From an uncultured Candidatus Saccharibacteria bacterium (GTDB taxonomy: Bacteria; Patescibacteriota; Minisyncoccia; Phycocordibacterales; UBA9973), in assembly GCA_964426555.1 (NCBI GenBank), contig CAYRQJ010000004.1, positions 19,109 to 83,108 of the forward strand: DNA of 64,000 nucleotides, read 5' to 3'. Shown piece by piece: positions 23,763 through 62,782 of this stretch (positions are counted from its first letter, which is position 1; every line of letters begins with the position of its first letter). Position numbers and translations under genes: made by a program. The notes beneath the pieces are model-generated. The model searched no databases. It saw only the letters and a program-made list of their open reading frames with translations, and had not been told where the DNA came from.

Positions 23763-23767
23763 AGGCC

Positions 23768-35389: not shown

Positions 35390-38300
35390 TTATATTACAG
35401 GCTCTGGGGCTGGTTCAGGATCTGGTGTTGGTGCTGGATCAGGGTCAGGTGTAGGAGCTGGATCGGGCGTTGGAGTTGAGTCTGGTGTTGGGTCTGGAGT
35501 AGGCGTTGGATCTGGTGTTGGAGATAGATCAGGTGTTGGATTTGATGCAGGAGATGGTGTTATTCCACTTTGATTTACCATTTGTAAGAATTGCTCTTCG
35601 TTAACACAGACACTGCCAACACACAATTCTTTTGTTTGAACTTTATCTGCATTTATTAATTTAGTAAAGATTACTTCTATATTATTCCCCACATCTGCCA
35701 AGAATATCTTTATCTTATTTGCTAAACTATTTTCTTTTGTTGTATCAAGTGAAGATAAATCTGTAACTTTTAAATTAAGTTCTTGAATAGCATTTAGTGC
35801 AATCATTTGTAATTCAAGATTATATGAAACTGCATAGTATCCATTTTTTTCTTTAACTAAATCAGGGAAAACTTGTGCCATTTCTTGAGCGATTAAACCA
35901 ACTTGTCTTCCTGATACATAACGTAGTGTTCCACCCAAGCTTTCTATGTCTTCATTCCATTCAAATGATACTGGGCGAAGTTGCATAACTTTTTCTAAAG
36001 ATCCAGTTAGTGAAGTAATATTATGTTTTAATCTTTCGTCAGATGTACATGTCCCAGCAACTTGAGCGCCGGCTTCTCGGAAACAGTCATCAGTATTAAT
36101 ATCGGCTACAACGTCTAGACCGTAGTCGGGAGTAGTATCTCCAATACCGACTTTACCATCACTAATAATTGTCATTCTATCAGTACCTGTTGTGGTTGTG
36201 GTATTAGCCGCAGTATAAAAAGTAATTGTGGTTACAGCGTTTGTAAGTGAACTACCACCACCAATACCAAAATTAGTTACGGCACTACTTGATGTGTAAT
36301 TAAACAATGCTACTGGCTCTTCGGCATTTGTATAATGAGGACCAACGATACGGGCATTTTTATCAGTAACGTTAGTTCTTGTATTTAAAGTATTGTCAGC
36401 ACCCAGCATCATAGTTATACCACCATTACTAATATCTAATGGATATGAAGGAGTTGCGGTAAGAATACCTAGACGATTATTTGTATCATCCCAGAAGAAG
36501 TTTGAATTGTCTTGAGAAATTAAACCGCCTGTCCCAGTAAAAGGAACTGAGCCTGATGTTAATGTAGAAAATGTAATATTCCCAGATGATGTTATGCCAG
36601 TAGCGGCTGCTATTGCACCACTGGAATTGACTTGAAATAAATCACCATCACCAACAGTAAACTTTGCTGCAGGAGACGCGTCCCCTATACCAATATTCCC
36701 AGTAGACAATGTTGTACCTGTACCATCTATTCCAGTACCAAATATTAAGTTACCAATAGTCATCGTATTTGTAGATGTAGCCGTTGGAGCATCAATGTCG
36801 TAGCCGATGACAATGTTATATGAACCAGTAGTAATATTATTACCAGCTTGGTAACCAAAAAGAGAGTTACCATCTGCACCAGTAGCAAATAATCTTGTGG
36901 TATTATGTCCAACCGCAGTATTTCCACTTACTGTTGTATCCGCAACTGTTGCAACCCATGCATGTCCACCTATAACCGTATTATATGAGCCGAGATAGTT
37001 AGCCGTAAGTGCGTAAGTACCCAATGCGATGTTATAAGTTCCAGTACTTGTATTATTCCCTGAAGAATAACCTAGGGATGCATTGTTAGTTCCAGTTGTA
37101 ACACCAGAAAGTGCATATTCCCCAACACCACTATTGTAGCTTCCGGTTGATAAATTAAACAACGATTGCTGACCAACAGCAGTATTGTCGCTTCCTGTAG
37201 TATTGTAATACATACTTGCTTTACCCAACGCAGTATTTGCTTTCCCTGTTGTATTTGCAGCCATAGTATCTGCACCAAATGCAACATTTGAATGACCTGT
37301 GGTTAATGCAGACATTGTATTTTTACCAACAGCACTATTATAGCTTCCTTCCCATACTAATGTAGCAGTTGAGCCTATGGTAAAGTTTCCGGAACTTTCT
37401 CCAACGAAAGTATTTCCCCCCGAAGTTGTCACTGCTCCATTATTCCCATAGTTAAAATCATGGATAAATCTATTTCCATCTTTATAAATAATTCCGTATT
37501 GTGCAGCAAAACTTGTTGCTGGCATTCGGAAGTTTTTTGTAATTTCAAGTTGTTCATTTGGTGTAGCTATACCTATACCAATGTTACCAGTAGACAACGT
37601 AGCATTGACCCCATCAATACCTGTTCCAAAAATAAGATTACCGATATTTAAAGTATTATCCTGAGTATAGTCTTGCGGTTCAATATCGTAGCCAATCATT
37701 ATGTTATGGTCTGCTGAAGACCAGCCAAGACCTGCGTTTTTACCAATAAATATATTGTTACTACCAGAGAAAGCCCCGCCTCCACCAGCAGATTGTCCTA
37801 AAATTGTATTGCCTGAACCAGAAGCATGAGAAGCAGCACTATCTCCAATACCTATATTGTCTGAACCGGTAGAATTACCAAGAGCGCCACTACCGATCGC
37901 AACACCGCTACCACCAGTGGCATCCTGAAGAGCTCCATATCCTATTGCAATAGCTCCGCTACCATCATAATTCTCTAATGCACCATGACCTATTGCGATA
38001 GAATAAGCTGCACCAGTTCCATTTTTTAACGCGTCAACACCTATTGCAACATTAGACTCACCATAATCATTGCTATATAAAGTACGATAACCAATAGCCA
38101 CATTATTATAACCCGAATCATTTACATTAAAAGCTTGATAACCAAAAATAGTATTTGTATTATCATTACTTGGTCCACGCCCAAGTCGTAAACCATTTAT
38201 TAATGCTTCTCCGTTTACATCTAATTTTGCTAATGGAGTCGCAGTACCAATACCAATACTTCCTGTTGAAACCGTTGTGCCTGTACCGTCGATTCCTGTA

Positions 38301-39322
38301 CCAAAAATAAGATTACCAATAGATAGTTGGTTATCACCACCAGCTGTTGGTAAATCAATATCGTAGCCAATAATAATATTATTGTCAGCACCAGTAGTTA
38401 AATTATTTGCGGCTTGGTAACCAATAAAAATATTATTTGCAAATACATCACCACCTTCATTTGCATTAGTACCAGCTCTGGCACCCAAAACAACATTATA
38501 TCCACCAGAAGTGTTACTATATAATCCTCTATTTCCAAAAATAGTATTATAACTACCGGTATTAAAAGGTGCAGAAGAACTACCAACCGCAGTATTGTAA
38601 CTACCGCTAATATTGTAAAGTAAAGACAAACTTCCAACACCAACATTGGCTTGTCCTGTTGTGTTGTTGTATAAAGCACCGTTACCAGCAACAGCTGTAT
38701 TATCTACTCCGGTTGTATTATTTTTTAAAGCGTTATATCCAATACCCGCATTTGAATATCCTGTGGTTACACTATTTAAAGCATTTTTACCAAATCCAGA
38801 ATTATAGCTTCCTTGCCAAGAACTAGTAGCCGTAGAACCCATTGTTAAATTACCAGCACTTTCACCAACAAAAGTACTTGACCCCTCAGTTGTCACTGTT
38901 CCATTGTTTCCATAAGTAAAATTATGAATGAACGTATTTGCCCCTTTGTAAATTATTCCGTATTGTGCAGCAAAACTTGTATCTGGTATTCGGAAGTTTT
39001 TTGTAATTTCTAATTGTTGATTTGGCGTATTCGTCCCTATACCTAATCTATTATTTGTATCATCCCAAAAGAAGTTTGTATTATCTTGTGTTAATGTAGA
39101 ACCATCAGAAAAAGCTATAGAGCCAGTTGTAAGAGTTGGTAGAATTGATACATAACAGTTAGCATCACCAGGTGCACAAGTAGGATCAAGCATAGCGTCA
39201 GATGGTATATATGGTAAACCAAAAGCTACTCCAGTACCAAAAATACTAAATATCACTGTGGCAATAATGAATTGTTTATTGTATTTAAGCCACTTTATCA
39301 TAACTATAATCTTGTCCCACAA
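35390..39322 (-). CDS. giant repetitive cell-surface fibre-like protein (1310 aa) with C-terminal intramolecular-chaperone (Peptidase_S74-like) domain and Pro/Thr-rich tail
   Basis: N-terminal signal-anchor identical to paralog; arrays of about 14-15 aa NTA[VI]G..[AS]L.[NS]N repeats (beta-helix/fibre-like); C-terminal TSDERLKHNI...LRPVSFEWNED...VGLIAQEMAQVFPDLV; ends TPTPDPTPD... Confidence 0.85.
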   Translation of the reverse strand: MWDKIIVMIKWLKYNKQFIIATVIFSIFGTGVAFGLPYIPSDAMLDPTCAPGDANCYVSILPTLTTGSIAFSDGSTLTQDNTNFFWDDTNNRLGIGTNTPNQQLEITKNFRIPDTSFAAQYGIIYKGANTFIHNFTYGNNGTVTTEGSSTFVGESAGNLTMGSTATSSWQGSYNSGFGKNALNSVTTGYSNAGIGYNALKNNTTGVDNTAVAGNGALYNNTTGQANVGVGSLSLLYNISGSYNTAVGSSSAPFNTGSYNTIFGNRGLYSNTSGGYNVVLGARAGTNANEGGDVFANNIFIGYQAANNLTTGADNNIIIGYDIDLPTAGGDNQLSIGNLIFGTGIDGTGTTVSTGSIGIGTATPLAKLDVNGEALINGLRLGRGPSNDNTNTIFGYQAFNVNDSGYNNVAIGYRTLYSNDYGESNVAIGVDALKNGTGAAYSIAIGHGALENYDGSGAIAIGYGALQDATGGSGVAIGSGALGNSTGSDNIGIGDSAASHASGSGNTILGQSAGGGGAFSGSNNIFIGKNAGLGWSSADHNIMIGYDIEPQDYTQDNTLNIGNLIFGTGIDGVNATLSTGNIGIGIATPNEQLEITKNFRMPATSFAAQYGIIYKDGNRFIHDFNYGNNGAVTTSGGNTFVGESSGNFTIGSTATLVWEGSYNSAVGKNTMSALTTGHSNVAFGADTMAANTTGKANTALGKASMYYNTTGSDNTAVGQQSLFNLSTGSYNSGVGEYALSGVTTGTNNASLGYSSGNNTSTGTYNIALGTYALTANYLGSYNTVIGGHAWVATVADTTVSGNTAVGHNTTRLFATGADGNSLFGYQAGNNITTGSYNIVIGYDIDAPTATSTNTMTIGNLIFGTGIDGTGTTLSTGNIGIGDASPAAKFTVGDGDLFQVNSSGAIAAATGITSSGNITFSTLTSGSVPFTGTGGLISQDNSNFFWDDTNNRLGILTATPSYPLDISNGGITMMLGADNTLNTRTNVTDKNARIVGPHYTNAEEPVALFNYTSSSAVTNFGIGGGSSLTNAVTTITFYTAANTTTTTGTDRMTIISDGKVGIGDTTPDYGLDVVADINTDDCFREAGAQVAGTCTSDERLKHNITSLTGSLEKVMQLRPVSFEWNEDIESLGGTLRYVSGRQVGLIAQEMAQVFPDLVKEKNGYYAVSYNLELQMIALNAIQELNLKVTDLSSLDTTKENSLANKIKIFLADVGNNIEVIFTKLINADKVQTKELCVGSVCVNEEQFLQMVNQSGITPSPASNPTPDLSPTPDPTPTPDPTPDSTPTPDPAPTPDPDPAPTPDPEPAPEPVI

Positions 39323-39431: not shown

Positions 39432-42400
39432 TTATTCGGTTGTTGTTTCAGTATTAATTACTGGGTCTTCGTTAACTGTTTGGGTTGGTATTTCAGGAAT
39501 AGGTGGTGTTTCAACAGTTGAATTATCAGTATTTTCTTCAATATTTTGGTTCTCTTGTGTAGTATCTGTATTTGGTACTGGGTCAGGTGTTGGGGTTGGT
39601 TCAGGAGTTGAATCAGGAGTTGGTGTTACGTTTTGTGATTGTAATAGCTGTTGTAATTCTTGTTTTGTAATACAAACATCATCAATACAAAGTTTTTTAG
39701 TGTAAACTTCGTCAACAAAAATTGATTGAATTCCGTTCCCTACATCACTCAAGAATATTTTTATACGACTAGCTAAACTATTTTCTTTTGCGGGGTCAAG
39801 AGAATTTAAATCGGTAATTTTTAAATCTAAGTCTTGAATACTTTTAACAATTAATGGAGTTAGTTGAGAATAAGAAACTTTCCAATACTCATCTGGGTTA
39901 GACGGAATGATAACAGCATCAGGGTATGCATTGTACAATTCTTGAGCAACAAAACCATGAACACGAACATTTGGCTCTCGAATATATGAAAAATCTCTTA
40001 CCTTTATATCCATTAAGTTTCTTAGACTTAGACCAGTATCAACAATGTCTTGCTTTAGTCTTTGGTCAGAAGTTGTGGTTAATGTTAGTGTACCGGTTAC
40101 CAAAGACACAGTTCCAACATCACCACCGTCACCATCGTTAAACTGAATCCATTTACCAGCACTAGGAGTGTCTGCTCCGGCTTGATTGACTATACCAAAA
40201 CGGTAAAAATCATTACAATCGATTAAAAAATTTGAAGAATAATCAGCAGCATCCTCAAGAACAGTAAGCCTGTGTGTACCCAAAGTCACACTTCCGATTG
40301 TTGTTTTACCTAGGTTGGTCCAGTTCCCAGCGTCATCTAAATATGCAATAGATGATGAACTAGAATTAAGAGCATGTATGTTTTTTGTTGATGATGTTGC
40401 ACCTTGACCTTTAATCATTAATCTTGTGCTACCTATACCACCATTACTAGTATTACCAATAAAAGCATTACCATTAACATCAAAATCATTAACCGGAGAC
40501 ATTGATACACCAACTCTTCCACCAAAATATGCTGCATAATTATTAGTAGCTCCAGTAGGAACCTCAACATAAAGGCCGTACGCATTTGTTGCACTCGATA
40601 CAGAACTACCTTGTTGAATATACAACCCAATTGAATTTGTTATACTTGCATTTGTACTTTTAATAGGGGCGCCAGCAATAGCCATTGTTGCAGCATTAGT
40701 TATAGTACTTGCCCCCACAAATGAATATGTTGGTTGAGTTATTAATACTTCTCTTTGGGTTGCTATTGCACCTGTTGCCCATTGTCTACCCGCAGTAGTT
40801 AAAGTTAGTGATGGAATCTCAGTTGAGGCTGTTTGATTTGTATTAACAGCACCAGTGTACACAATACCTTTTAATGCACCAGTACTAGTAATAGTCTGAG
40901 CAACCTCAAGTTTGCCAGTGGGTGCAGCTATGCCTATACCAATATTTCCTGTTGATACAGTTGTGCCAGTTCCATCTATTCCAGTACCAAAGATAAGGTT
41001 ACCAATGGATAATTGGCTATCAGTTGTTGCGGATGGTGCATCGATATTATAACCAATTACAATATTTTTAGAACCGGTAGTTAATGCATCACCAGCTTGC
41101 CAACCTAATAAAATATTATAATCACCACTTGTCGCAGCAAGTCCTGAACCATAGCCAATAGATGTATTACCAGTACCCGATGTTGAAGTAAACAAGGCTT
41201 TATAACCAATCCCAATTGATTGATCTGCTGTAGTATTGGTTAATGATTGACTACCAAATACTTGATTACCAATACCCACATTGTCAGTACCGATCGTTTC
41301 AACTGCTGCATGATACCCTAAATAGACGTTATCAGAACTAGTTGTAATTGCTGCACCTGCTAAATATTCACTGGCCATAGCTTCTTGCCCAATTACAACA
41401 TTTCGAAAACCAACAAGTGAATATCCTGCGGCTGAACCCATCAACACATTTCCTCCACTGGTACCACTGGTTGTAATATTGAACCCAGAAGATTCTCCAA
41501 TAGAGATGTTATTACTACTTGTTGAAATATTTCTAAGTGCATCTTTATTTATAGCTACGTTAGAATAACCAGAACTAAGTGGTTGCGCAGCAGCAGCTCC
41601 AATTGCAACATTAAACTGTCCACTAGACAGATTTAACATTGTATTGTCACCAATAGAAATATTTCTATCTCCAGTTGCTGAAGAGTTAAGAGAATTACCA
41701 ATACCGATATTTGAATATGGAGTTACTCCTGTAGATGCAGTTCTGTGAATATACCAGTCACCTGCAACGCTACGAATTCCTGTATCCATAGTTGCTGTTG
41801 TAAATCTTAGTTCAGCGGTAGAAGAAGAGAGTGTGACAGATGCACCAGTTGTACTAACAGCTCCAGTTGAAGTAACTTGGAATTGTGATGTTGATCCAAC
41901 AGAAAACATATTTGTTGGGCTTGTATTCCCACCAATATTTACAAGCCCGCCAGTAGATATTCGCATTCTTTCAACACCAAGTGCTCCATTGTTTGTTCCA
42001 AAAACAATATTTCCACTATAAGTATTAATAACAAAATTAGTTACAGCTCCGCCTATTTGAAAACCAGCTTGACCTGTAGCACCTAAAGACATCTCATTAT
42101 AACCACCACTGGAACCATTTATAAAAAATTTTGCATAGTTTGAACCACTACCACCATTTGCATTGTATAAAGTTAAATCTGGAGTCCCAGTGGTTGATGT
42201 GTTTTCAATTAATATTTTTGTTTGTGTAGCATCGGCGTCTTTAATTAACAAAGCTTCTCCTGGAGCAGTAGCTCCAGTACCTATACCTACACGACCAGTA
42301 TCACGAAAAGTAACAAAAGCAGTACCGTTATCTTTAATTAAGAAATCCCCAGTTGAAGTTAAATCAACAAACGAATCAGTAGAAGTACCAGCAGTTAATG

Positions 42401-45215
42401 AATATATTCCAGATGATGTTATACCAGTCGCAGCTGCTATTGCACCAGATGAATTGACTTGAAATAAATCACCATCACCAACTGTAAACTTTGCTGCAGG
42501 ACTTGCATCACCGATACCCACATTCCCAGTTGAAAGTGTAGTCCCTGTGCCATCTATTCCTGTACCAAAGATTAAGTTACCAATAGACATTTGACCATCT
42601 GTCGTATTGCTTGGTGCGTCAATGTCATAACCAATGACAATATTCTTGTCACCAGTTGTTATTGCATTACCAGCAGCATAACCAATAGCGATGTTGTTTG
42701 CAGCGTCCCCCATACTTTGACCAGCACCAAAACCTATCAAAGTGTTGCCATCAGCAGCTAAATTTAGGCCAGCAATAGTACCAATTATTGTTGAATAATT
42801 AATTGCAGCGGTTGTTTGTCTTGCTGCACCATATCCAATAACTACATTGTCAGCACCAGCTCCATCACGAAGAACGGCTGAACCAATGGCTACGTTTTCA
42901 TTACCCGAACTTGTAAACATTGCTCTGTAACCCATAACTATGTTATCACTATCTCCAGCTAATCCTGATCCGGCTTCATAACCAATAGCAATGTTATCAC
43001 TACCTGTTGTAGAAATACCATTCATGGCACTTGTACCAATAGCAATGTTTTGCGATGCTGTTGTTAATGCATTTAAAGACGATACACCAATACCAATGTT
43101 ATTAGCTCCTTCGGTTACAAGTCTTAAACCACTAATACCCACATTATTACCACCACTTGTTGTGTCTTGTCCTGAATATTGACCAACACCACCTGCGCGA
43201 CCGGCAAAGAAATTGTTTGAGCCTGTTGTTACAGCACTAAATGTTCCCTGGTTTAAAACAGTATTAAGTAATGTTGTATCAAAACGAAGAGCAAATACTC
43301 CACCTATTTTATATCCATTAGTTAATACTCCAGTACTTGATGTGTTAAAGAAACCCGTAGCGCTACTAATCACAGCAGAAGCCCCTGAGCCTGACAATGT
43401 TAGTGCCGCACCAGTTGAATCTAATGTTTTTGCTCCGGCAAAAGTTTGTGTACCTGTTGTAACAACACCACCAAATGAAGCGGAAGCTGGTTCAAGATTT
43501 AAAGTAACCCCAGAAATAGTAGCGCCATTTGAATTTGCTGATGAACCAATAACCCCAATAGTTGTAACACCACCAGATGCTGCTGCCCATGTTAATGTTC
43601 CTGATCCATTATTTGTTAAAACATAACCACTGGCTCCAGCCTGAGATCCGGGCCATGTATAAGTAACATTATTTATTTTTACGATATTCCCAGATGAATC
43701 AACTTGGAATAGGTCTCCATTACCTACGGTTAATAATGAGGCAGGAGTAGTATCCCCAATACCTAAATTACCGGAATTAATTACTCGAATTTTTTCAGTT
43801 AAAGAACCACTAGTTGTTGTTGAGAAAGAAATATATCCAGTATTATTTACTCGGTTTTGGAAATAAAATTGCCCAGCATTAGAAGCTGCAGATTGACTGA
43901 ATCCTCCAACACGATAATTCACAGTTCCTGGCCATGCTCCTTCTCGTAAATCAAGTAATGTTTGATTTGTCCCTGCAACATCTTGCATTACAAATTGAGC
44001 TGCACCACTTGTTGCCCCTGCACGAATAGTCACATCTCCACTGGCTGTCATAACGTCTAATCTTACATTAGGTGATGCAATACCTATACCGATATTTCCA
44101 CTGGAAACTGATGTCCCTGTTCCATCAATACTTGTACCAAAGATTAAGTTACCAATAGATAATTGATTATCACCACTGGCAGTTGGTAAATCAATATCGT
44201 AGCCGATAATAATATTATTACCCGCACCTGATGTTGCATTATTAGCAGCTTGATATCCAATAAAAATATTATTGTCTAAATTACCAGTCCCACCAGTATT
44301 ATAACCAGAATCATATCCCAAGGAAACATTATTACTACCACCAGTATTTGAACGTAATGCATTTAACCCCATTCCAATATTGTAATTACCAGTTGAATTA
44401 TTGTATAAAACATTTCCCCCTATACCAGTATTATATAAACCAGTATTGTTATACAAAGCATTTGTACCGACGGCAGTATTATACCCAGTTGTACTATTTG
44501 AATACAGAGCATTGACCCCAACTGCAGTATTTCCACTACTAGTAGTATTATTTCTTAAGGCATATACACCAAACGCAGCATTAGATACTCCACTACTATT
44601 ATTTTCTAAAGACTGTTTACCAACAGCTGTATTGTCTACACCACCAATATTTGAATATAACGTCCTGTATCCAACAGCAGTACTACCATTCCCTGTATTT
44701 GTATAAAGAGCAGTATATCCAATTGCAGTATTTTGAAGAGCAGAAACTGAACTATATAAAGTCTGATAACCCACGGCAGTATTTTGACTACCATTAGTAT
44801 TTGAATTTAAAGTTTGATAACCCACTGCGGTATTTGTAGCAACACTACCAGCACCAAGACCAACACGAATATTATTTAATAAAACATCAGATCCAGAAAC
44901 TTCAAGTTTATAAGTAGGCGTATTCGTTCCTATCCCTAATCTATCATTTGTATCATCCCAAAAGAAATTTGTATTATCTTGTGTTAATGTAGAACCATCA
45001 GAAAAAGCTATAGACCCGGTAGTAAGCGTTGGTAGAATTGACACATAACAGTTAGCATCACCTGGTGCACATGTAGGATCAAGCATAGCGTCAGATGGTA
45101 TATATGGTAAACCAAAAGCTACTCCAGTACCAAAAATACTAAAGATCACTGTGGCAATAATGAATTGTTTATTGTATCTAAGCCACTTTATCATAACTAT
45201 AATCTTGTCCCACAA
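39432..45215 (-). CDS. giant repetitive cell-surface fibre-like protein (1927 aa), paralog of 35390..39322
   Basis: N-terminal 95 aa identical to paralog except 2 residues; long NTA[VI]G/NN[IV][SA][IL]G repeat arrays; shared 40-aa block NIGIGDASPAAKFTVGDGDLFQVNSSGAIAAATGITSSG; C-terminal TTSDQRLKQDIV...VRDFSYI...HGFVAQELYNAYPDAV chaperone domain; PT/E-rich tail. Confidence 0.85.
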   Translation of the reverse strand: MWDKIIVMIKWLRYNKQFIIATVIFSIFGTGVAFGLPYIPSDAMLDPTCAPGDANCYVSILPTLTTGSIAFSDGSTLTQDNTNFFWDDTNDRLGIGTNTPTYKLEVSGSDVLLNNIRVGLGAGSVATNTAVGYQTLNSNTNGSQNTAVGYQTLYSSVSALQNTAIGYTALYTNTGNGSTAVGYRTLYSNIGGVDNTAVGKQSLENNSSGVSNAAFGVYALRNNTTSSGNTAVGVNALYSNSTTGYNTAVGTNALYNNTGLYNTGIGGNVLYNNSTGNYNIGMGLNALRSNTGGSNNVSLGYDSGYNTGGTGNLDNNIFIGYQAANNATSGAGNNIIIGYDIDLPTASGDNQLSIGNLIFGTSIDGTGTSVSSGNIGIGIASPNVRLDVMTASGDVTIRAGATSGAAQFVMQDVAGTNQTLLDLREGAWPGTVNYRVGGFSQSAASNAGQFYFQNRVNNTGYISFSTTTSGSLTEKIRVINSGNLGIGDTTPASLLTVGNGDLFQVDSSGNIVKINNVTYTWPGSQAGASGYVLTNNGSGTLTWAAASGGVTTIGVIGSSANSNGATISGVTLNLEPASASFGGVVTTGTQTFAGAKTLDSTGAALTLSGSGASAVISSATGFFNTSSTGVLTNGYKIGGVFALRFDTTLLNTVLNQGTFSAVTTGSNNFFAGRAGGVGQYSGQDTTSGGNNVGISGLRLVTEGANNIGIGVSSLNALTTASQNIAIGTSAMNGISTTGSDNIAIGYEAGSGLAGDSDNIVMGYRAMFTSSGNENVAIGSAVLRDGAGADNVVIGYGAARQTTAAINYSTIIGTIAGLNLAADGNTLIGFGAGQSMGDAANNIAIGYAAGNAITTGDKNIVIGYDIDAPSNTTDGQMSIGNLIFGTGIDGTGTTLSTGNVGIGDASPAAKFTVGDGDLFQVNSSGAIAAATGITSSGIYSLTAGTSTDSFVDLTSTGDFLIKDNGTAFVTFRDTGRVGIGTGATAPGEALLIKDADATQTKILIENTSTTGTPDLTLYNANGGSGSNYAKFFINGSSGGYNEMSLGATGQAGFQIGGAVTNFVINTYSGNIVFGTNNGALGVERMRISTGGLVNIGGNTSPTNMFSVGSTSQFQVTSTGAVSTTGASVTLSSSTAELRFTTATMDTGIRSVAGDWYIHRTASTGVTPYSNIGIGNSLNSSATGDRNISIGDNTMLNLSSGQFNVAIGAAAAQPLSSGYSNVAINKDALRNISTSSNNISIGESSGFNITTSGTSGGNVLMGSAAGYSLVGFRNVVIGQEAMASEYLAGAAITTSSDNVYLGYHAAVETIGTDNVGIGNQVFGSQSLTNTTADQSIGIGYKALFTSTSGTGNTSIGYGSGLAATSGDYNILLGWQAGDALTTGSKNIVIGYNIDAPSATTDSQLSIGNLIFGTGIDGTGTTVSTGNIGIGIAAPTGKLEVAQTITSTGALKGIVYTGAVNTNQTASTEIPSLTLTTAGRQWATGAIATQREVLITQPTYSFVGASTITNAATMAIAGAPIKSTNASITNSIGLYIQQGSSVSSATNAYGLYVEVPTGATNNYAAYFGGRVGVSMSPVNDFDVNGNAFIGNTSNGGIGSTRLMIKGQGATSSTKNIHALNSSSSSIAYLDDAGNWTNLGKTTIGSVTLGTHRLTVLEDAADYSSNFLIDCNDFYRFGIVNQAGADTPSAGKWIQFNDGDGGDVGTVSLVTGTLTLTTTSDQRLKQDIVDTGLSLRNLMDIKVRDFSYIREPNVRVHGFVAQELYNAYPDAVIIPSNPDEYWKVSYSQLTPLIVKSIQDLDLKITDLNSLDPAKENSLASRIKIFLSDVGNGIQSIFVDEVYTKKLCIDDVCITKQELQQLLQSQNVTPTPDSTPEPTPTPDPVPNTDTTQENQNIEENTDNSTVETPPIPEIPTQTVNEDPVINTETTTE

Positions 45216-48051: not shown

Positions 48052-48702
48052 TTATCCGGCTATAAGTTCGTTAACTTTAGACATTGTAGTTCCAGTTACA
48101 ATACCGTCAGCTGTAATTTTGTTAGCAGTTTGGAATTTTTTAACCGCAGTTTCAGTCATTGGACCAAATGCACCGTCAGCTATGCCTGTTAAATATTTAT
48201 TATCAATTAAAAATTGTTGCAGTATTTTTACTTGTTCTCCTTTACTACCCTTTTTTAAAGTTTGAGTAATAGGACCAATAGCAATATCAGTTTCTTCTTC
48301 TACAACTACAGGTTTTACAACGTTTCCACTGGTTGGTATTTTAGTATCATTAGATATAACAGTTTCATTTGCATTACCATTCATAGTAATGGTTACATTG
48401 TCTTTTGTTTTAGTGTTAGCACTGTCTACTGTATTTTCTAAAGTATTTTGGTCTATTACTGTTTCTTCGTCTGTTGTTGGATTTATTTCATTACCAAAAG
48501 GGTCAGTAAGATTTGTTTCTTCTTCTACAACCGTAGCAGTCTTACTGCCAAATATTTTTTTAGACAAAGCCATTTCTGGATTAATCTTCAAATAAAAAGC
48601 TCCGAATGTTCCTGCACATAAGATAAGCAATAATACAATAATAAATGTTAGAGTTTTGTTTGACATAAGAAATAAAATACTTTTACTTTTATAGTATATC
48701 AC
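48052..48702 (-). CDS. membrane-anchored protein with C-terminal peptidoglycan-binding (PG_binding_1-like) domain
   Basis: N-terminal TM; C-terminal GSKGEQVKILQQFL...ADGAFGPMTETAVKKFQ...ADGIVTGTT. Confidence 0.7.
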   Translation of the reverse strand: MIYYKSKSILFLMSNKTLTFIIVLLLILCAGTFGAFYLKINPEMALSKKIFGSKTATVVEEETNLTDPFGNEINPTTDEETVIDQNTLENTVDSANTKTKDNVTITMNGNANETVISNDTKIPTSGNVVKPVVVEEETDIAIGPITQTLKKGSKGEQVKILQQFLIDNKYLTGIADGAFGPMTETAVKKFQTANKITADGIVTGTTMSKVNELIAG

Positions 48703-51944: not shown

Positions 51945-52955
51945 ATGAAAAGAATTTTAATGTTTTTAGGATTATTTGTTTTACCCACTACTGGTTTTGC
52001 TCATGTTAGATATGTTTTAGAAGAAAATATAGACTACCATACATTACTGGGACAAAACTGGGGGTTATTAAAATCAGGAATAAATAATTCGGGTTTTATA
52101 GTTGGAACTATTGTTAGTCTTATAATAATAGGAGTAATAATTGAAATGTTGCATACCAAAATATTTAAAAGTTATTTTGACAAAGTAAAAGAAAGATTAA
52201 ATTCATACCATGAATTAGTACCATGGATTATTAGACTTTGTCTTGGTATTGCGTTAATTGGTGCAGGTACAGGACATTTTTTAATATCACCAATAATGGC
52301 AAGCAGCGCATTAATTGCAAATATTGAAATACTATTAGGATTTTTATTCTTAGCTGGATTTTTATTAGTACCAGCAACAATAGCAACAATTATTATATAT
52401 ATTATTGCTATAACTACTGATACATATTTTTTAGGTAATTTAGACTTTTTAGCTTTAGCTATTGGGTTATTAGTATTTCACAGTGCGCGCCCAGGGGTAG
52501 ACGACATCTTAGGAATTTCTTTATTAAAATTTATTAAAATTAAAAGATTATATTTAGACTTGATCTTGAGAATTGGTGTAGGGACAGCAATGATATATCT
52601 TGGTTTATTTGAAAAAATTCTTAATCCCCTTTTAGCAGAACACGTTGTAAATCAATTTAGTTTAACCAGTATAATACCAGTCACAGCTGCTACTTGGACT
52701 TTGGCGACAGGAATAATTGAAACTGCATTAGGGTTAATTATTATGTTTGGATTATTTACTAGAATTGCAGCAATAATTAGTATTATTGTTATTTCTATTA
52801 CTTTTTTCTTTTTTAATGAAGCAGTATTTTCTCATGTTACATTGTTTGGGATATTATCAATCATTGCAGTAGAAGGTAGCAGTATTTTAAGCTTGGATAA
52901 TATAATCAAAAATAAAAAACTATTGACCAAAACAAATAATATTGGAATACGCTAG
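51945..52955 (+). CDS. hypothetical polytopic membrane protein (about 8 TM)
   Basis: 336 aa, highly hydrophobic, no conserved motif recognised. Confidence 0.5.
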   Translation: MKRILMFLGLFVLPTTGFAHVRYVLEENIDYHTLLGQNWGLLKSGINNSGFIVGTIVSLIIIGVIIEMLHTKIFKSYFDKVKERLNSYHELVPWIIRLCLGIALIGAGTGHFLISPIMASSALIANIEILLGFLFLAGFLLVPATIATIIIYIIAITTDTYFLGNLDFLALAIGLLVFHSARPGVDDILGISLLKFIKIKRLYLDLILRIGVGTAMIYLGLFEKILNPLLAEHVVNQFSLTSIIPVTAATWTLATGIIETALGLIIMFGLFTRIAAIISIIVISITFFFFNEAVFSHVTLFGILSIIAVEGSSILSLDNIIKNKKLLTKTNNIGIR

Positions 52956-53109
52956 TTAAATTTGGAATTAAAAAGTATGCAGTGTATAATACTACACGAA
53001 GCGATCCTTTTTACGCAGGTGGTTTTGTTTTTTTTAATTTCTTAACCCCTGTACAAGGCAAACCCCCAATTCGTAAGAATTGGGGGTTTGCTGCAATACG
53101 TTAAATTGA

Positions 53110-53700
53110 TTATATTTTTACTAATTCTGTAAAAATTACTAACCTGTCTGAAGATGATTTTTTAATATTATTCCACAAACCACTACAAGTAATTAGATTT
53201 AAATATGCACCATTAGATTTCGGCACAAATACATCGGTATAATCTTCACCTGGGGTGTAAATTTTAATTTTAATTACATTAAACACAAGAATATTCCCCA
53301 AACTGTCTTCTATATAAATTTTGTCGTCAACACGCAATTTATATAAATTATCAAATACGGCAGGTAAATTCCCTTTCCATCCAGAATGTCCATCGATTAT
53401 GGCTACCCCATTTTCTCCTGGTCGCGGACCTAAATTATACCAACCTACATTTTTGGGTCCAGAAGGAGCATCAACTGCACCATCTTTTGTTAATCCAACA
53501 TGTTCAACTTTTGATACCACCCCAATAATTGGGATTTTTAAATTTACAGGATTTAATTTGCTATTATTTTTAATAACAATATTTTGTAAATTTACAAAAA
53601 GTAAGATTTTTCTTTCTTTTGCTTTTACTATAATAAATAAAAAAACAAAAATTACTAAAAGAAATCCCAATAGTATATTTTTATTTTTAAAATTTAACAT
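53110..53700 (-). CDS. sortase-family transpeptidase
   Basis: N-terminal TM anchor; catalytic His in AIIDGHSG, active-site LNLITCSG (TLxTC motif). Confidence 0.8.
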   Translation of the reverse strand: MLNFKNKNILLGFLLVIFVFLFIIVKAKERKILLFVNLQNIVIKNNSKLNPVNLKIPIIGVVSKVEHVGLTKDGAVDAPSGPKNVGWYNLGPRPGENGVAIIDGHSGWKGNLPAVFDNLYKLRVDDKIYIEDSLGNILVFNVIKIKIYTPGEDYTDVFVPKSNGAYLNLITCSGLWNNIKKSSSDRLVIFTELVKI

Positions 53701-53717
53701 TAATTTTTAAAACAACA

Positions 53718-55010
53718 TTATTTATTGTTTACTGCTTTGCGATGAAAATATATAAACAAAGATGCCCCAATTATTCCTAAAAATATAATTGCGTAACTTA
53801 TATAATTTTTTGACTGAGTTGGGTAACCTGTATTTGGCATGGCTGGCACAAAGACTGTATTTACCGGAGGATTAGAAATTGCAGTAATTACTGGGTTACT
53901 AATCACAACAGGTAAAGTATTATTTTCAAGTAATCTTGCAGCGTCACTCATTGCTTGAAGAATATAAACTGGGATAGACCCACCAGACTGAACAACTGGT
54001 ATTATATAAGTATTTATTATTGTACAAATTTTTTCAGCGCCTGTAGCAAATGTTATAGATCCGGCAGAATCACAATCTCCAGAAAAAGTTTTTGTATAAC
54101 TATTATTTACATCTTCACTAACTTCGTAAGTACCTCCAGATAATGAATACAGTGTTCCAGGTGAGATTACTCCAACAGCTGGACTACCAGACACATTTAC
54201 TCCACCTGTTTTTACATATAAATTAAAATCAGAAGAAGCAAGTAGTCCACCTCCGGTATTAACCACAGTTTTGATTATATGAAAACTGGCATTAGTACAA
54301 GTTGGAACAGTAACGGTACTAGTATCTCCAGTTGTTATTACTCCTGCCCCAATAGAAAGTAGTCTTCCTGTTACAGTTGTATTTGCTCCAATAGTAATTG
54401 CATTTGCATTATCAACTATTGTTCCAGAAAATGTAGTAGTTGCTGCTAATGTTGTAGCTGCAGTTGGTGTCCAGAACACATCACAAGCAGATGGTCCAGT
54501 TAAAGTTACAGTAGTACCAACAGTAGAAGTTAAAGCCCCTACTGGTCTAAAAATATAAGTACCGCTACCACTAAGAGTAATTGGGCTTCCAATATTCATT
54601 GCACCACTACTACAATATACTCCGGGGTTATACACCCCAATTGTCCCATGAGTGGCGTCTGTACCTAAATCAATTGCACCTGGTGCAAAAGTAAAAGTAC
54701 AAGCATTAGCGGCTAAAGACCCTAATAAAGTTGATGTGTCTGTTTGTGCAGTCGGTGTTGGTGCACCTGCTCCATAAATTGTGCCACTGACTATTGGTGG
54801 TGTTACTGGGCCAGTTGTATAGCCTACGTCACCATTAATAGTAGTTGCGGCTGATGTGTTGGTATATGTACCAGCAAGTACCCCGTAACTGGCTGATAAG
54901 CCAAGAGATGGAGTTGTTGCACCAAAACTAATGTTTGGAGAAATTATTCCCAAGACTAAAAATGCTGCTGCTAATACAGTTAGCGCTGGTTCCTTCTTAA
55001 ATTTTCTCAT
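53718..55010 (-). CDS. Thr/Gly-rich secreted surface protein with C-terminal sortase-type sorting signal (MPNTG + hydrophobic segment + HRK tail)
   Basis: Signal peptide MRKFKKEPALTVLAAAFLVLGII; C-terminus ...VPAMPNTGYPTQSKNY-ISYAIIFLGIIGASLFIYF-HRKAVNNK; immediately upstream of sortase gene. Confidence 0.75.
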   Translation of the reverse strand: MRKFKKEPALTVLAAAFLVLGIISPNISFGATTPSLGLSASYGVLAGTYTNTSAATTINGDVGYTTGPVTPPIVSGTIYGAGAPTPTAQTDTSTLLGSLAANACTFTFAPGAIDLGTDATHGTIGVYNPGVYCSSGAMNIGSPITLSGSGTYIFRPVGALTSTVGTTVTLTGPSACDVFWTPTAATTLAATTTFSGTIVDNANAITIGANTTVTGRLLSIGAGVITTGDTSTVTVPTCTNASFHIIKTVVNTGGGLLASSDFNLYVKTGGVNVSGSPAVGVISPGTLYSLSGGTYEVSEDVNNSYTKTFSGDCDSAGSITFATGAEKICTIINTYIIPVVQSGGSIPVYILQAMSDAARLLENNTLPVVISNPVITAISNPPVNTVFVPAMPNTGYPTQSKNYISYAIIFLGIIGASLFIYFHRKAVNNK

Positions 55011-55185
55011 AAAATATTTACTTTTGTTAGCTAGTTATGACCATATACAGTATGACACACTATATACATAATAGATACAAGAGAATTTATAGCTTATATT
55101 ACAAGAGTTTGCGGTGGTAATCTAAAAATGGTAAAACTAGATATCAGTAAAGATATTTTTTCTTAAAAAACTATTTACTAAATAA

Positions 55186-55272
55186 GGAGGCGTCGCATAG
55201 TGGTCTAGTGCACTACCTTGGAAAGGTAGCATGGTGTCAAAGCCATCGGAGGTTCAAATCCTCTCGCCTCCT
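55186..55272 (+). tRNA. tRNA-Ser (anticodon GGA), class II with long variable arm
   Basis: GGAGGCG acceptor pairing CGCCTCC; anticodon stem CTACC/GGTAG, loop TTGGAAA; variable arm CATGG...CCATC; T-arm GGAGG-TTCAAAT-CCTCT. Confidence 0.85.
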
Positions 55273-55281
55273 CAAATAAAT

Positions 55282-56172
55282 CTATATACTATTTCTTAAT
55301 CTTTTTATGCGTTCTTCGGCTGGTGGGTGTGTTGAAAAAAGATTTCCAATTTTTTTACCAACATTACCATTTCCAAATGGATTAGCAATATATAAATGCG
55401 ATATTGCGGTAGATTGATGTTTCATAGGTTGAGAATATGCTGCGATTTTTTCCAATGCACTGGCTAAACCTTCGGGGTATCTTGTAAGCAAAGCACCAGA
55501 TGCATCAGCTAAATATTCTCTATTTCGTGAAATTGCTAACTGCATTAGTGTAGCTAATATAGGAGCAAGGATAGATAATACAATTCCAATAACTACCATT
55601 ATCCCCCCACCATTTTCTCGGTCATCACGTCCACCAAAAAATGACATTCGTATAAACATGTCAGACACAATGGAAATAAATCCCACCAGCACTACTGCTA
55701 CTGTAGATACCAACATATCACGGTTACCAATATGTGACATTTCATGAGCAATTACGCCTTCTAGCTCGGTCTTGTTAAGAATTGCCAGTAGTCCTGTTGT
55801 AGCTGCAATTACAGCATGATTTTTATCACGACCAGTCGCAAAAGCATTTGGTGCAGAATCTTCAACTACATATATTTTAGGCATTGGCAGACCTGCAGTA
55901 ATTGATAAATTTTCCACTGCATTATAAAAATCAAAATATTCTTCCCTACTAGCCGGTTTAGCCCCCGCCAATGTTAATACAATTTTGTCAGAATACCAGT
56001 AACCAACTATATTCATTACAATGCTAAATAAAACAAAAATATATAGAATATTTGGGTTGTGGTAAGTTTGCGCAAAAACAAAACCTAACCCAATTACAAT
56101 ACCAAAGAACAGGCTCATTAGTAGCCAGGTCTTACGAACGCTTTGTGATTGATGAGTATAAAGTGTAGCCAT
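55282..56172 (-). CDS. htpX: zinc metalloprotease HtpX (M48)
   Basis: HEMSHIGNRD HExxH motif, four TM helices, M48 topology. Confidence 0.9.
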   Translation of the reverse strand: MATLYTHQSQSVRKTWLLMSLFFGIVIGLGFVFAQTYHNPNILYIFVLFSIVMNIVGYWYSDKIVLTLAGAKPASREEYFDFYNAVENLSITAGLPMPKIYVVEDSAPNAFATGRDKNHAVIAATTGLLAILNKTELEGVIAHEMSHIGNRDMLVSTVAVVLVGFISIVSDMFIRMSFFGGRDDRENGGGIMVVIGIVLSILAPILATLMQLAISRNREYLADASGALLTRYPEGLASALEKIAAYSQPMKHQSTAISHLYIANPFGNGNVGKKIGNLFSTHPPAEERIKRLRNSI

Positions 56173-60792: not shown

Positions 60793-61638
60793 TTATTTTT
60801 TGTTTTTAGCTACTAATACTACATTATTCATCAAACATGCCACAGTTACGGGTCCAACACCACCCGGGGTTGGGGTTATAAAGCTACATTTATCTTTCAA
60901 ACTTTCAAAATCAGCGTCCCCTACTAATTCTCCACTAACTTCCAGTGTTCCAGCATCTATTACTATTACCCCATCGCGCACGTCTTCTCCCTGTAATATA
61001 TTAGGACTACCTACTGCGGTTATTACAACATCAGCTTTATTTAGAATTTCTTTTTTTCTAGCATCATCAGTTTTTCGGTCAATAATATTTACAACAGCAT
61101 TTGTTTGTTTTAACAAATGTACTATTGGTTTACCCACTAATTTACCATGTCCAATTATGGCAATATTTTTATTTTCTAAATCAGGCAAAACAAAATTTAA
61201 TATTTTCAATACAGCGTTGGCTGTGGGCATTATTAATGTATCTGTACTATTTTTATTTTCATAAAAAACTTCATCATATTTAGTAGATAACCCATCCACA
61301 TCTAAATGAACTGGGATAGAATCTAATACTGCTTTGGTATCAATACCATCTGGCAATGGTAATTGTACAATTATCCCACACATATTGGGACGTAAAGATA
61401 TTTCATGAATTTTAGAAATTATTTCGTTTGTTGTAATATCTTCATTTAAATTTGCATCAACAAATTCTATACCAATATCACCCGCAATACGTTTTTTCAT
61501 ATTTACATAGCGCACTGACGGGCCATCTTGCCCAACTAAAATATCAGAAAATTCAGGAGTAAAATCTAAACTAGCGATTTGTTTTTTTAAATCACCTAAT
61601 AATTCTTTACTAAATTCACGCCCATTAAATACCACCAT
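60793..61638 (-). CDS. folD: bifunctional methylenetetrahydrofolate dehydrogenase/cyclohydrolase
   Basis: PGGVGPVTVACLMNNVV, GHGKLVGKP, VDRKT motifs. Confidence 0.9.
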   Translation of the reverse strand: MVVFNGREFSKELLGDLKKQIASLDFTPEFSDILVGQDGPSVRYVNMKKRIAGDIGIEFVDANLNEDITTNEIISKIHEISLRPNMCGIIVQLPLPDGIDTKAVLDSIPVHLDVDGLSTKYDEVFYENKNSTDTLIMPTANAVLKILNFVLPDLENKNIAIIGHGKLVGKPIVHLLKQTNAVVNIIDRKTDDARKKEILNKADVVITAVGSPNILQGEDVRDGVIVIDAGTLEVSGELVGDADFESLKDKCSFITPTPGGVGPVTVACLMNNVVLVAKNKK

Positions 61639-62782
61639 ATTCTTTATCTACTCCTAAAAATTCTTTATTAATATCGTCCCGATGAAATGATCTTCCATAT
61701 TTGCGCATTGCTTGCAGTATCCCAAGACCAAGAAATGCTGAAACCAGGTGCGACCCACCATAACTCATAAATGGCAATGTAATACCCGTCACAGGCATTA
61801 CGCCCATATTCATACCTATATTTATAACAATATGACTAAAGAATAACAATGCCATTCCAATACCAAAAAGCATTTCAAAATTGCTAGCTCCATACATTGC
61901 TGTCATTAAAATTCGCGTAATTACAATGGTATATAAAATTAATAAGATTACCACCCCAACAAAACCCCATTCTTCTGCAAAGGCTGCAAAAATAAAGTCA
62001 GTCTCATATTCTGGCAAGAATTGTAAACGTGACTGTGTACCAAAACCAAGACCTTTACCAAATGCCTGGCCTGAACCAACAGCAATTGTTGATTGCAAAA
62101 CATTATAACCCGAACCATGAATATCACTTAATGGATTTAAAAATGTATTAATTCTTTTCTTTTGATAATCTTCAAATACAAAGATATACAAACTGGAAAA
62201 CAATATAACCCCAATTACACTAAGAACAATAAGATGTTTTCGAGAAAGTCCTGATGCCATAACCATTCCAAACCATACAACTATCAATATCATCGCTGAA
62301 CCAAAGTCTGGTTGAAAAAATACAAGTAGAAATGGTAGTAGCATATACATTCCAGATACTATAATATGTCTAAAGTTTGCTATTTCAATATGTCTACGTG
62401 AAAAATATTTGGCTAAAATTAAAATCAGAATAATCTTCATTAAATCAACTGGCTGAAATGCAAAATTACCTAATTTAAACCATGATTGTGCCCCATTAGA
62501 AAGATGCCCTACAGCAAAAAGCATTATTAATAAAAATAAACAAATTGTATATATACTTAGAACAGCCCTGGATTTTCTTAAAAATCTTGGGTCAATACTA
62601 CTGGCTAAAAAGAATACAAACAAAGAAATAATTATAGAAATTAACTGTTTATGGAAAAACACATCACTGCCTGATAATGGCCACAATGCTCCAAGTGATG
62701 CTAATAGTATTGGAATAATTGCCAGTAAAAGTACCCAATCTATATTTTTAAATACAGATAGAAAGGATTTATTATTTGACAT
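61625..62782 (-). CDS. rodA: SEDS-family peptidoglycan glycosyltransferase (RodA/FtsW)
   Basis: 10-TM SEDS architecture, QPDFGSAM, LPEYETDFIFAAFAEEWGFVG motifs. Confidence 0.85.
   Translation of the reverse strand: MSNNKSFLSVFKNIDWVLLLAIIPILLASLGALWPLSGSDVFFHKQLISIIISLFVFFLASSIDPRFLRKSRAVLSIYTICLFLLIMLFAVGHLSNGAQSWFKLGNFAFQPVDLMKIILILILAKYFSRRHIEIANFRHIIVSGMYMLLPFLLVFFQPDFGSAMILIVVWFGMVMASGLSRKHLIVLSVIGVILFSSLYIFVFEDYQKKRINTFLNPLSDIHGSGYNVLQSTIAVGSGQAFGKGLGFGTQSRLQFLPEYETDFIFAAFAEEWGFVGVVILLILYTIVITRILMTAMYGASNFEMLFGIGMALLFFSHIVINIGMNMGVMPVTGITLPFMSYGGSHLVSAFLGLGILQAMRKYGRSFHRDDINKEFLGVDKEYGGI

Follow-up and report, generated by a model that had tools for sequence, protein, structure and literature searches.

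The locus examined here raises the question of whether a sortase gene and its immediate upstream neighbor encode a true enzyme-substrate pair and, if so, whether the pentapeptide MPNTG near the C-terminus of the putative substrate represents a new sorting code. The window, by which we mean the whole 64-kb stretch of DNA that was analyzed, contains a 430-aa substrate gene (53718..55010) and a 196-aa sortase gene (53110..53700), which are both located on the minus strand and are separated by 17 bp in the ORF list. Both ORFs lie where an earlier note on this DNA had placed them, and all features described below are likewise on the minus strand. Profile searches revealed one sortase and one such substrate only in the 64 kb, and a six-frame scan of the same region found a single ORF, that of the substrate, with an xPx[TSA][GASN] motif, a hydrophobic stretch, and a basic tail in this order at its end. 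Because this is the single motif-bearing ORF in the window, and because both the signal and the adjacency are conserved in relatives, the pairing goes beyond chance. The window also encodes RodA/FtsW, a PG_binding_1 protein, a PAP2 phosphatase, and SecDF, which indicates that a cell wall is present. A scan for promoter and terminator sites across 52800..55400 gave no excess over shuffled sequences and was thus uninformative. Our best explanation for the locus, which we consider probable, is that the two genes form a cassette by which a Patescibacteria (CPR) bacterium displays a protein on its cell surface, with the substrate anchored to the wall via MPNTG.

The sortase matched Pfam Sortase PF04203 with 68.1 bits (cutoff 26.6, E 7.5e-19) across profile positions 1-125 of 125, and its AF2 model (pLDDT 79) has the eight-stranded sortase beta-barrel. 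The sole helix in the model that is long enough to be a TM helix is N-terminal (residues ~8-26). The catalytic residues are His105 (nt 53386..53388), Cys172 (53185..53187), and Arg186 (53143..53145). In an alignment of 31 sortases, G104-H105, L169-I-T-C172 (NLITC, of the TLxTC type), and R186 are invariant, which bears out the GH and LITC motifs that had been read from the sequence before and adds the Arg. A Foldseek search with the model resulted in 114 PDB matches at E<=1e-3, and the best 50 of the 114 are all sortases. The matches include sortases of classes C, E, D, and A, which Foldseek does not separate for this model, and class assignment by structure was therefore abandoned; no solved class F structure is among the Foldseek matches listed. 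Against the NCBIfam model class_F_sortase (NF033748), the sortase scored 103.7 bits over model positions 7-154 of 155, which is below the 166-bit cutoff, and the next class, class C, followed at 34.6 bits, a margin of >60 bits. Homologues that NCBI has named 'class F sortase' fall below the cutoff as well, with 105-121 bits. We refer to the enzyme as class F-like because class F is the best match by a wide margin though under the cutoff, and any class F properties ascribed to it are therefore an extrapolation.

The prototype of class F is reportedly SrtF of Cutibacterium/Propionibacterium acnes, said to go back to Di Girolamo et al. in 2019 (cited in PMC8225981 and PMC13251363). Like class F sortases, the window sortase has a single N-terminal TM helix, a His-Cys-Arg triad, and an LPXTG-type substrate motif, in that LPxTG or FPxTG is found adjacent to the gene in relatives and MPNTG in the window. 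It differs from them in its sub-threshold NF033748 score, in its origin from Patescibacteria and not Actinobacteria, and in that its gene is part of a conserved cassette that supplies a single dedicated substrate.

The substrate is rich in Thr (15.1%), Gly (11.2%), Ala (10.0%), and Ser (9.3%), and has 854 homologues at E<=1e-5, several of which are named 'ice-binding family protein' by NCBI. An AF2 model was obtained with a pLDDT of 81.7. Residues 1-30 (54921..55010) read as a Sec-type signal peptide, MRKFKKEPALTVLAAAFLVLGIISPNISFG|A, with a helix at residues 8-22 in the model, and thus provide the N-terminal element of a protein with an LPXTG-type signal. Cleavage is predicted at SFG|ATTPSLG, and the conserved mature N-terminus A30/A31-T-T-P34-S-L-G of the homologue alignment begins directly after the signal peptide. 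The following domain (residues ~31-238, 54297..54920) is an ice-binding-like (DUF3494 / IBP-1 fold) right-handed beta-helix with a flanking alpha-helix and four conserved Cys (104, 133, 176, 238). The substrate passed the curated threshold of Pfam Ice_binding PF11999 (64 bits, cutoff 28.7, E 1.9e-17), and its sequence matches in the PDB include 5uyt (2.6e-19), 6eio, and 3wp9. Each of the best 31 Foldseek PDB matches of the model is an ice-binding protein (E 2e-10 to 3e-7), and comparison with these 31 solved chains gave target-normalised TM scores of 0.66-0.87 for most single-domain targets. The pLDDT of the domain is mostly >90, and the helix at residues 85-100 lies beside the solenoid, as is characteristic of the IBP-1 fold.

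C-terminal to the beta-helix, strands at residues 241-335 of the model (54006..54290) form an Ig-like / prealbumin-like (SpaA-like, CnaB-type) beta-sandwich stalk. The earlier note had proposed a check for pilin or Ig-like folds, and an Ig-like stalk is indeed found alongside the beta-helix, with weak Foldseek matches (E ~1e-2) to S. pyogenes pilin and Cpa domains. Pfam PF19403 is precomputed for most substrate homologues; a Pfam search with the window's substrate returned no PF19403 match at E<=0.1. In the homologue alignment, K247 and E299 of the stalk are invariant and N333 is conserved in at least 90% of the sequences; Cys313 and Cys329 are also present. In the model, K247 and N333 lie on the first and last strands of the stalk and E299 on one in between, which is suggestive of an intramolecular CnaB-type isopeptide triad. 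The stalk is followed by a low-complexity linker (residues 336-390, 53841..54005) that is predicted to be disordered, with pLDDT <50 at 345-372 and 389-402 in the AF2 model. The length and sequence of the linker vary across homologues, and it would span the wall.

These features bear on the mode of sortase action, for which the earlier note had offered covalent anchoring or polymerisation. In the latter case, the sortase would join the beta-helix protein head-to-tail via a lysine, in a class C-like manner, to assemble a pilus or fibre instead of or before wall anchoring. The closest solved structures to the sortase are class C pilus sortases (8t28, 1.7e-8 by profile; 7d6t, 1.6e-9 by Foldseek), and the stalk, which carries the invariant Lys247, resembles streptococcal pilin domains and the CnaB-type pilin domains of Gram-positive pilus systems (e.g., SpaA, Spy0128). 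However, class E, D, and A sortases are nearly equal to class C by Foldseek (E 1e-8 to 1e-7), and class C trails class F among the NCBIfam profiles. The hallmarks of class C pilus systems also differ from what we observed at this locus. A sequence scan of the sortase detected no class C lid motif DP[WFY], and the protein has no C-terminal TM, with its end located ~3 residues past the last barrel strand (185-193 of 196). A pattern scan of the substrate found neither a YPK pilin motif nor an E-box. Instead of a multi-pilin gene cluster, the cassette consists of a single sortase and a single substrate gene, with no second pilin gene in the window and usually one substrate gene in relatives. In addition, the strand placement of Lys247, Glu299, and Asn333 in the model would fit an intramolecular isopeptide better than an intermolecular nucleophile. 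Given that there is no pilin motif, class C lid, or second pilin gene, wall anchoring is favored over polymerisation, which we regard as highly improbable.

The C-terminus of the substrate, ...VFVPA-MPNTG-YPTQSKNY-ISYAIIFLGIIGASLFIYF-HRKAVNNK, contains each part of the tripartite sorting signal that had been recognized previously. The MPNTG motif (residues 391-395, nt 53826..53840, ATGCCAAATACAGGT) aligns column for column with the LPNTG of homologues, and P392 and G395 are invariant in that alignment. The rest of the signal (53718..53825) comprises the spacer YPTQSKNY, a hydrophobic helix at ~404-422, the basic tail HRKAVNNK, and the stop codon. The best 19-residue Kyte-Doolittle window of the helix has a value of 2.19 and covers residues 404-422, and the model contains a helix at 403-429. 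The helix and tail lie within the 35 residues after Gly395 at the extreme C-terminus, as in the layout of LPXTG-type signals. No NCBIfam family matched the substrate. Four of the five motif positions are canonical with respect to LPXTG. The earlier note used the term 'non-canonical' for MPNTG, which calls for the correction that the motif departs from the family's LPNTG at the first residue only.

The substitution nevertheless leads to a second alternative, in which Met has killed the sorting signal, the C-terminal helix merely tethers the protein to the membrane, and the neighboring sortase has no bearing on it or acts on other proteins. Position 1 is tightly restricted in wild-type S. aureus SrtA, where Ile is poor and Ala and Cys give non-substrates (PMC9299656), and a TAG stop within the substrate gene of one assembly of the window's clade (L002) could hint at relaxed selection. 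However, decay at further positions would be expected if the signal were dead, whereas the divergence of the clade has left PNTG and its spacing intact, along with the TM helix and the basic tail. The sortase retains an intact catalytic triad, the linkage of the two genes is tight (15-17 bp), and no alternative candidate substrate for the sortase is present in the window. We consider a plain membrane anchor very unlikely.

The conservation of the gene pair was followed in 79 Patescibacteria species-level loci from a sortase-profile contig search, a set from which the window's species is absent and in which the best sortase identity is 60%. In 60 of the 79 loci, the ORF that immediately precedes the sortase on its strand has [LF]Px[TA]G, a TM helix, and a basic tail at its C-terminus, and these upstream proteins are mostly of the ice-binding-like (DUF3494) beta-helix plus Ig-like stalk type. 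The association with a sortase is thus conserved in relatives, contrary to the lack of it that the earlier note had named as counterevidence, and of its reading the genuine, conserved sortase-substrate pair stands and polymerisation is unsupported. Judged from these sequences, the pair is a conserved and widespread two-gene cassette of Patescibacteria. The window pair is an ordinary member of this known cassette, and its sortase most likely fastens the protein to the cell wall. Homologues are already annotated in public pipelines as 'class F sortase' and 'ice-binding family protein'. Sortases are common in CPR (PMC6744442), and the envelope of Patescibacteria is poorly characterised (PMC5220378). 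No account of the cassette or of an MPXTG-type motif was found in the open-access literature, which is weak evidence of absence as it covers open-access papers only. The CPR 'Pam' pilus (preprint 10.64898/2026.03.03.709456) was considered as a related system and dismissed as unrelated, since it relies on donor-strand exchange with no sortase role.

The remaining question is what the Met at position 1 means. Motif statistics were compiled from 120 close homologues, from 60 species-level loci, and from a further set of 142 cluster representatives (50% identity), of which 47 bear a signal. The family consensus is LPNTG, with Leu at position 1 in ~85% and Phe in 10-25%, and with Met confined to the narrow clade of the window. 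Among the close homologues, LPNTG is present in 51/120 and MPNTG in the window protein only. Position 1 is Leu in 52, Phe in 7, and Met in none of the 60 loci, and the corresponding counts for the 47 diverse representatives are 30, 10, and 0. Within the clade, MPNTG is found in 5/5 sequences (the window, L001, L002, L086, and P0241), which stem from at least four independent assemblies and have sortase identities of 75-99%; the nearest outgroup (60% sortase identity) has LPNTG. A sequencing or assembly error behind the Met was discounted because the ATG codon recurs in L001, L002, L086, and P0241. The rarity of Met among hundreds of homologues, together with its fixation in the clade, is a pattern that co-adaptation of enzyme and signal would also produce.

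The Phe variants are informative on this point. The Phe-type sortases are not monophyletic, as five of six have a Leu-type sortase as the nearest neighbor, and in one locus (L024), a single sortase is preceded by adjoining substrates, with FPRTG in one and LPNTG in another. Since Phe and Leu variants interleave phylogenetically and share one sortase, it follows that position 1 tolerates large hydrophobic residues, and from the sequences compared it looks permissive, not re-tuned. The characterised class F sortase recognises LPXTG (PMC8225981), and S. aureus SrtA accepts norleucine, a Met isostere, at position 1 with moderate activity (PMC9299656). As part of the display cassette explanation, and with the same confidence in the whole, Met at position 1 is probably a conservative, clade-fixed substitution of LPNTG that is tolerated (Leu > Phe > Met) and does not constitute a new recognition code.

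The earlier note had instead raised a possibly lineage-specific recognition motif. For this to be the case, the clade's sortase and its dedicated substrate would have co-evolved to make MPNTG the preferred motif, possibly with the benefit of insulation from a second or host sortase. A one-enzyme, one-substrate cassette can drift jointly, and Met is fixed in all five clade sequences across 25% sortase divergence and absent from ~220 other signal-bearing homologues. The clade sortases also have ~20 substitutions of their own, one of which, H166Y, lies six residues N-terminal to the catalytic Cys at a position where 49/50 others have His. However, phylogeny alone predicts clade-specific substitutions, and H166Y was rejected as the determinant of Met specificity because a further sortase (P0155) also has Tyr166 and its adjacent substrate (P0099) has LPNTG. 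The departure from the consensus is a single conservative change, with the Pro, Asn, Thr, Gly, and downstream context the same, and Leu and Phe already vary at this position with no split in the enzyme lineage, even within one cassette. The scan for further [LM]PNTG proteins that had been suggested found no second protein with the motif within the 64-kb window. Taken together, we view a re-tuned specificity as unlikely and retain the reading of MPNTG as a tolerated variant.

Based on the wall-anchoring cassette, our current hypothesis for its action is as follows. Sec would export the 430-aa protein, whose C-terminal hydrophobic helix and basic tail would retain it in the membrane for a short time. 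The putatively co-transcribed, membrane-anchored, class F-like sortase (His105/Cys172/Arg186) would then cut MPNTG between Thr394 and Gly395, a position predicted from sortase biochemistry, and would transfer the substrate to a peptidoglycan precursor through a thioacyl intermediate. The ice-binding-like beta-helix would thereby be displayed at the surface on its Ig-like stalk and flexible linker, where its likely role would be that of an adhesin. This scheme resembles the anchoring of LPXTG (MSCRAMM) proteins by S. aureus SrtA, which shares the tripartite signal, signal peptide, Ig-like stalk, and wall-spanning linker of the substrate and, by analogy, would share Thr-Gly cleavage, the thioacyl intermediate, and transfer to lipid II. 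It differs in that the window sortase is weakly similar to class A (only 7s54, 7.7e-4, by profile), in the Met for Leu at motif position 1, and in that SrtA is a housekeeping enzyme with many dispersed substrates, whereas the sortase here has a dedicated operon partner within the 64-kb window.

With regard to the displayed domain, the DUF3494 beta-helix is shared with Shewanella frigidimarina SfIBP_1 (6bg8) and with the IBP-1 fold proteins matched above (5uyt, 3wp9, 6eio). SfIBP_1 is a cell-surface DUF3494 'ice adhesin' according to Vance et al. 2018, as relayed in PMC9957290 and PMC11645318. The window substrate follows the plan of such ice adhesins, namely a signal peptide, an ice-binding-like domain, and Ig-like domain(s) that tether it to a cell anchor, and differs in that the anchor is a sortase signal and not a lipoprotein/membrane anchor. 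This beta-helix is no less likely to bind another surface, e.g., that of a host cell, than ice, and in organisms living on other cells, a wall-tethered DUF3494 beta-helix on an Ig-like stalk could plausibly mediate attachment.

The tight and widespread linkage of a class F-like sortase to one kind of substrate in Patescibacteria is relevant because actinobacterial class F enzymes are reported to have no known physiological substrates as yet (PMC13251363). Studies of sortase specificity and sortase-tag engineering gain a modest observation from the clade, namely that Met can be naturally fixed as the first residue of a signal that in all other positions is canonical LPNTG. A more far-reaching joint reading would make the cassette the first natural example of a class F-type sortase paired with a dedicated substrate, displaying a major host/surface-attachment adhesin of an episymbiont, and would in addition have the window clade co-evolve a private MPNTG code that is poorly handled by LPXTG sortases and by the ancestral enzyme; we consider this combination unlikely. 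Lastly, the record titles of the loci indicate that the ice-binding-like family is very widespread in Patescibacteria of many non-icy habitats.

The earlier note had described a sortase next to a substrate with a tripartite sorting signal, and our analysis confirmed both ORFs on the minus strand together with the anatomy of the signal. The substrate gene (53718..55010, minus strand) encodes a 430 aa protein, and the sortase gene (53110..53700, minus strand, 196 aa) begins 17 bp 3' of it. The substrate, which by composition count is 15% Thr, 11% Gly, and 10% Ala, starts with the Sec-type signal peptide MRKFKKEPALTVLAAAFLVLGIISPNISFG|A and ends in ...VFVPA-MPNTG-YPTQSKNY-ISYAIIFLGIIGASLFIYF-HRKAVNNK. 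The MPNTG motif occupies residues 391-395 (nt 53826..53840, minus strand), and residues 404-422 are the most hydrophobic 19-residue window of the protein. A six-frame scan of the 64-kb window for ORF ends that combine a Pro-containing pentapeptide, then a hydrophobic stretch, and then a basic tail returned the substrate as the sole ORF with a sorting-type end. Profile searches of the window found a single sortase and a single such substrate.

Relatives of both proteins come exclusively from Patescibacteria/CPR assemblies, including Paceibacterota, Nomurabacteria, and Saccharibacteria, and a sortase family was already known to be encoded by more than half of CPR genomes (PMC6744442). A sortase profile search of species-representative genomes gave 80 loci, and the count covered the 79 whose upstream DNA reached at least 400 bp. 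At 60 of these 79 loci, a same-strand ORF ends just 5' of the sortase gene and encodes [LF]Px[TA]G together with a hydrophobic helix and basic tail, and the majority of these ORFs are homologous to the substrate in the window. In this cassette, sortase and substrate form a dedicated module. The earlier note had considered that relatives might show no sortase association; this is clearly not the case, since the pairing is conserved across them. It is also very unlikely that the signal has decayed and now acts as a plain membrane anchor, because its remaining features and the enzyme are all maintained. The kind of system is well known, with homologues already annotated by public pipelines, and the pair in the window carries a conservative variant of the motif. 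In the open-access literature, for which coverage was incomplete, we found no description of a Patescibacteria cassette combining a class F-like sortase with DUF3494, nor of a natural MPxTG signal. In some relatives, a single sortase has two sorting-signal proteins next to it, and multiple signals or cassettes were found at loci L024 (1022..4201), L014 (2176..5915), L038 (1467..5089), L072 (4186..8894), L028, and L029. Two distinct sortase cassettes lie on different contigs of the MAG H41-bin121_1; FPDTG is the signal in one and LPKTG in the other.

Among the 120 closest homologues of the substrate, LPNTG is found in 51, the rest have mostly other LPxTG or LPxAG motifs and several have Phe first, and MPNTG is found in the window protein only. 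Position 1 of the pentapeptide is Leu at 52 of the 60 cassette loci, Phe at 7, and Met at none, with one doubtful Ile. A further 142 representatives at 50% identity yielded 47 recognizable signals, with Leu in 30, Phe in 10, and Met in none; about two-thirds of the 142 have no recognizable C-terminal sorting signal, and truncated gene calls may account for some of these. MPNTG was found again at the related loci L001, L002, and L086 and in the homologue P0241. The sortases of L001, L086, and L002 are 75%, 76%, and 99% identical to that of the window, and the L001 substrate is 90% identical. Met at position 1 is real and stable. LPNTG is found in the nearest outgroup, L083, whose sortase is 60% identical; a single change from Leu to Met therefore became fixed at the root of a narrow clade of roughly genus rank. 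In L002 (GCA_020049755.1, JAHZTO010024202.1), the substrate gene is interrupted by a TAG at positions 76-81 where the window has TGG (Trp180), and the called product consists of the C-terminal 182 aa only; the TAG is either a real pseudogene/nonsense allele or an assembly error.

Evidently, this sortase family is permissive at position 1. The nearest neighbor of five of the six Phe-type sortases is a Leu-type sortase, and at L024 an FPRTG and an LPNTG substrate are adjacent, both upstream of one sortase. Kruger et al. 2004 (Biochemistry) reportedly found Met to be the best-tolerated natural substitute for Leu in SrtA. Norleucine, a Met isostere, gives moderate activity at position 1 with Staphylococcus aureus SrtA, while Ile works poorly and the enzyme does not take Ala or Cys (PMC9299656). 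A sortase specificity re-tuned for MPNTG and private to this lineage would agree with a Met that is rare yet fixed in the clade, and we regard it as unlikely.

The sortase matches Pfam Sortase (E 7.5e-19), has one N-terminal TM helix, and retains a catalytic triad (G104-H105, NLITC172, and R186) that is invariant among 31 aligned homologues. Its best NCBIfam class is class_F_sortase at 103.7 bits over the whole model, which is below the 166-bit curated cutoff, with class C as runner-up at 34.6 bits; homologues named 'class F sortase' by NCBI likewise score just 105-121 bits against the class F model. Comparison of the predicted structure confirms a sortase barrel and does not discriminate between classes (class C at about 1e-9, classes E, D, and A at 1e-8 to 1e-7). 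The sortase sequence lacks the DP[WFY] lid and a C-terminal TM, and the substrate sequence lacks the YPK pilin motif and the E-box. Polymerization of the substrate into a pilus is thus highly improbable, as every defining feature tested is missing. The sortases of the window clade carry clade-specific substitutions, the most notable being Tyr166 (xYLNLITC; nt 53203..53205), which is His in 49 of 50 compared others. A tie between Tyr166 and Met at position 1 was ruled out, because Tyr166 is also present in the homologue P0155, whose paired substrate has LPNTG.

The substrate has three recognizable parts. An ice-binding-like DUF3494 domain (Pfam PF11999, E 1.9e-17) makes up its N-terminal two-thirds and has PDB sequence matches to 5uyt (2.6e-19), 6eio, and 3wp9. 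An AlphaFold2 model built with 45 homologues as input (mean pLDDT 81.7, above 90 over the solenoid) predicts a beta-solenoid with a long flanking helix. The best 31 Foldseek matches of this model in the PDB are all ice-binding proteins, with target-normalized TM scores mostly of 0.66-0.87, and 6bg8 is among the matches. Residues 241-335 are modeled as an Ig-like beta-sandwich with weak Foldseek matches to streptococcal pilin and adhesin domains, and most homologues have this region annotated as a SpaA-like prealbumin fold (PF19403). In the homologue alignment of this stalk, Lys247 and Glu299 never vary, and Asn333 is kept in at least 90% of the sequences; the model places Lys247 on the first strand, Glu299 on a middle one, and Asn333 on the last, which is the layout of a putative CnaB-type intramolecular isopeptide triad. 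A predicted disordered linker of ∼55 residues precedes the sorting signal. The substrate family is very large (13,687 cluster representatives at E<=1e-3 in a profile search) and includes giant proteins with many stalk-domain copies; many of the representatives P0244-P0384 are 1,000-3,000 aa long, with as many as 18 stretches that match the Ig-like stalk domain.

The substrate has six conserved cysteines, suggesting the presence of three disulfide bonds. The window encodes a DsbA-like thioredoxin protein at 2325..3251 (plus strand; Thioredoxin_4, E 4.7e-19), which fits these cysteines and the MdbA-like family noted for CPR (PMC6744442). Homologous genes are present in the relatives at L084 (5599..6324) and L085 (2542..3267), and in some relatives the DsbA-like homologue, a PG_binding_1 protein, and a GT2 glycosyltransferase directly adjoin the sortase cassette.

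From established sortase biochemistry (the Mazmanian/Schneewind model, and class F data as summarized in PMC8225981), the substrate would be exported by Sec and held in the membrane by its C-terminal helix and basic tail. Cys172 of the sortase would then attack the Thr394-Gly395 bond, and the acyl-enzyme would be passed to a lipid II amine and built into the wall. Anchoring would display the beta-helix on the Ig-like stalk and linker. The substrate has a signal peptide, DUF3494 domain, Ig-like tether, and cell anchor in common with 'ice adhesins', for which PMC9957290 (citing Vance 2018; PDB 6bg8) gives the same proposed plan. Patescibacteria live attached to other cells, and for them attachment to a host or to another surface would be the likelier function.

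The window is a housekeeping part of the chromosome of a low-GC (about 34%) bacterium and encodes RpoB/C, RpoD, DnaG, GyrB, SMC, tRNA synthetases, and SecDF. Genes for RodA/FtsW (61625..62782), a PG_binding_1 protein (48052..48702), and a PAP2 phosphatase imply a peptidoglycan wall. A gene for a 336 aa polytopic membrane protein (51945..52955, plus strand; DoxX 2.4e-7, sub-threshold HTTM 7e-5) is convergent to the sortase gene; it is found at the same place in the close relatives L001 and L002 but not in L084, which is more distant. Four co-directional ORFs (350, 234, 167, and 398 aa; 22013..25572, plus strand) and a 1071 aa ORF (18267..21482, minus strand) gave no match to Pfam at E<=1e-4. 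Tandem giant proteins of 1310 and 1927 aa (35390..39322 and 39432..45215, both minus strand) end in Peptidase_S74 domains (E 4e-16 and 1e-8). This 'chaperone of endosialidase' is a self-cleaving intramolecular chaperone typical of phage tail-spike/fiber proteins. The six-frame scan of the window found no sortase signal on either giant, and their region has a GC content of 0.385-0.40, above that of its surroundings.
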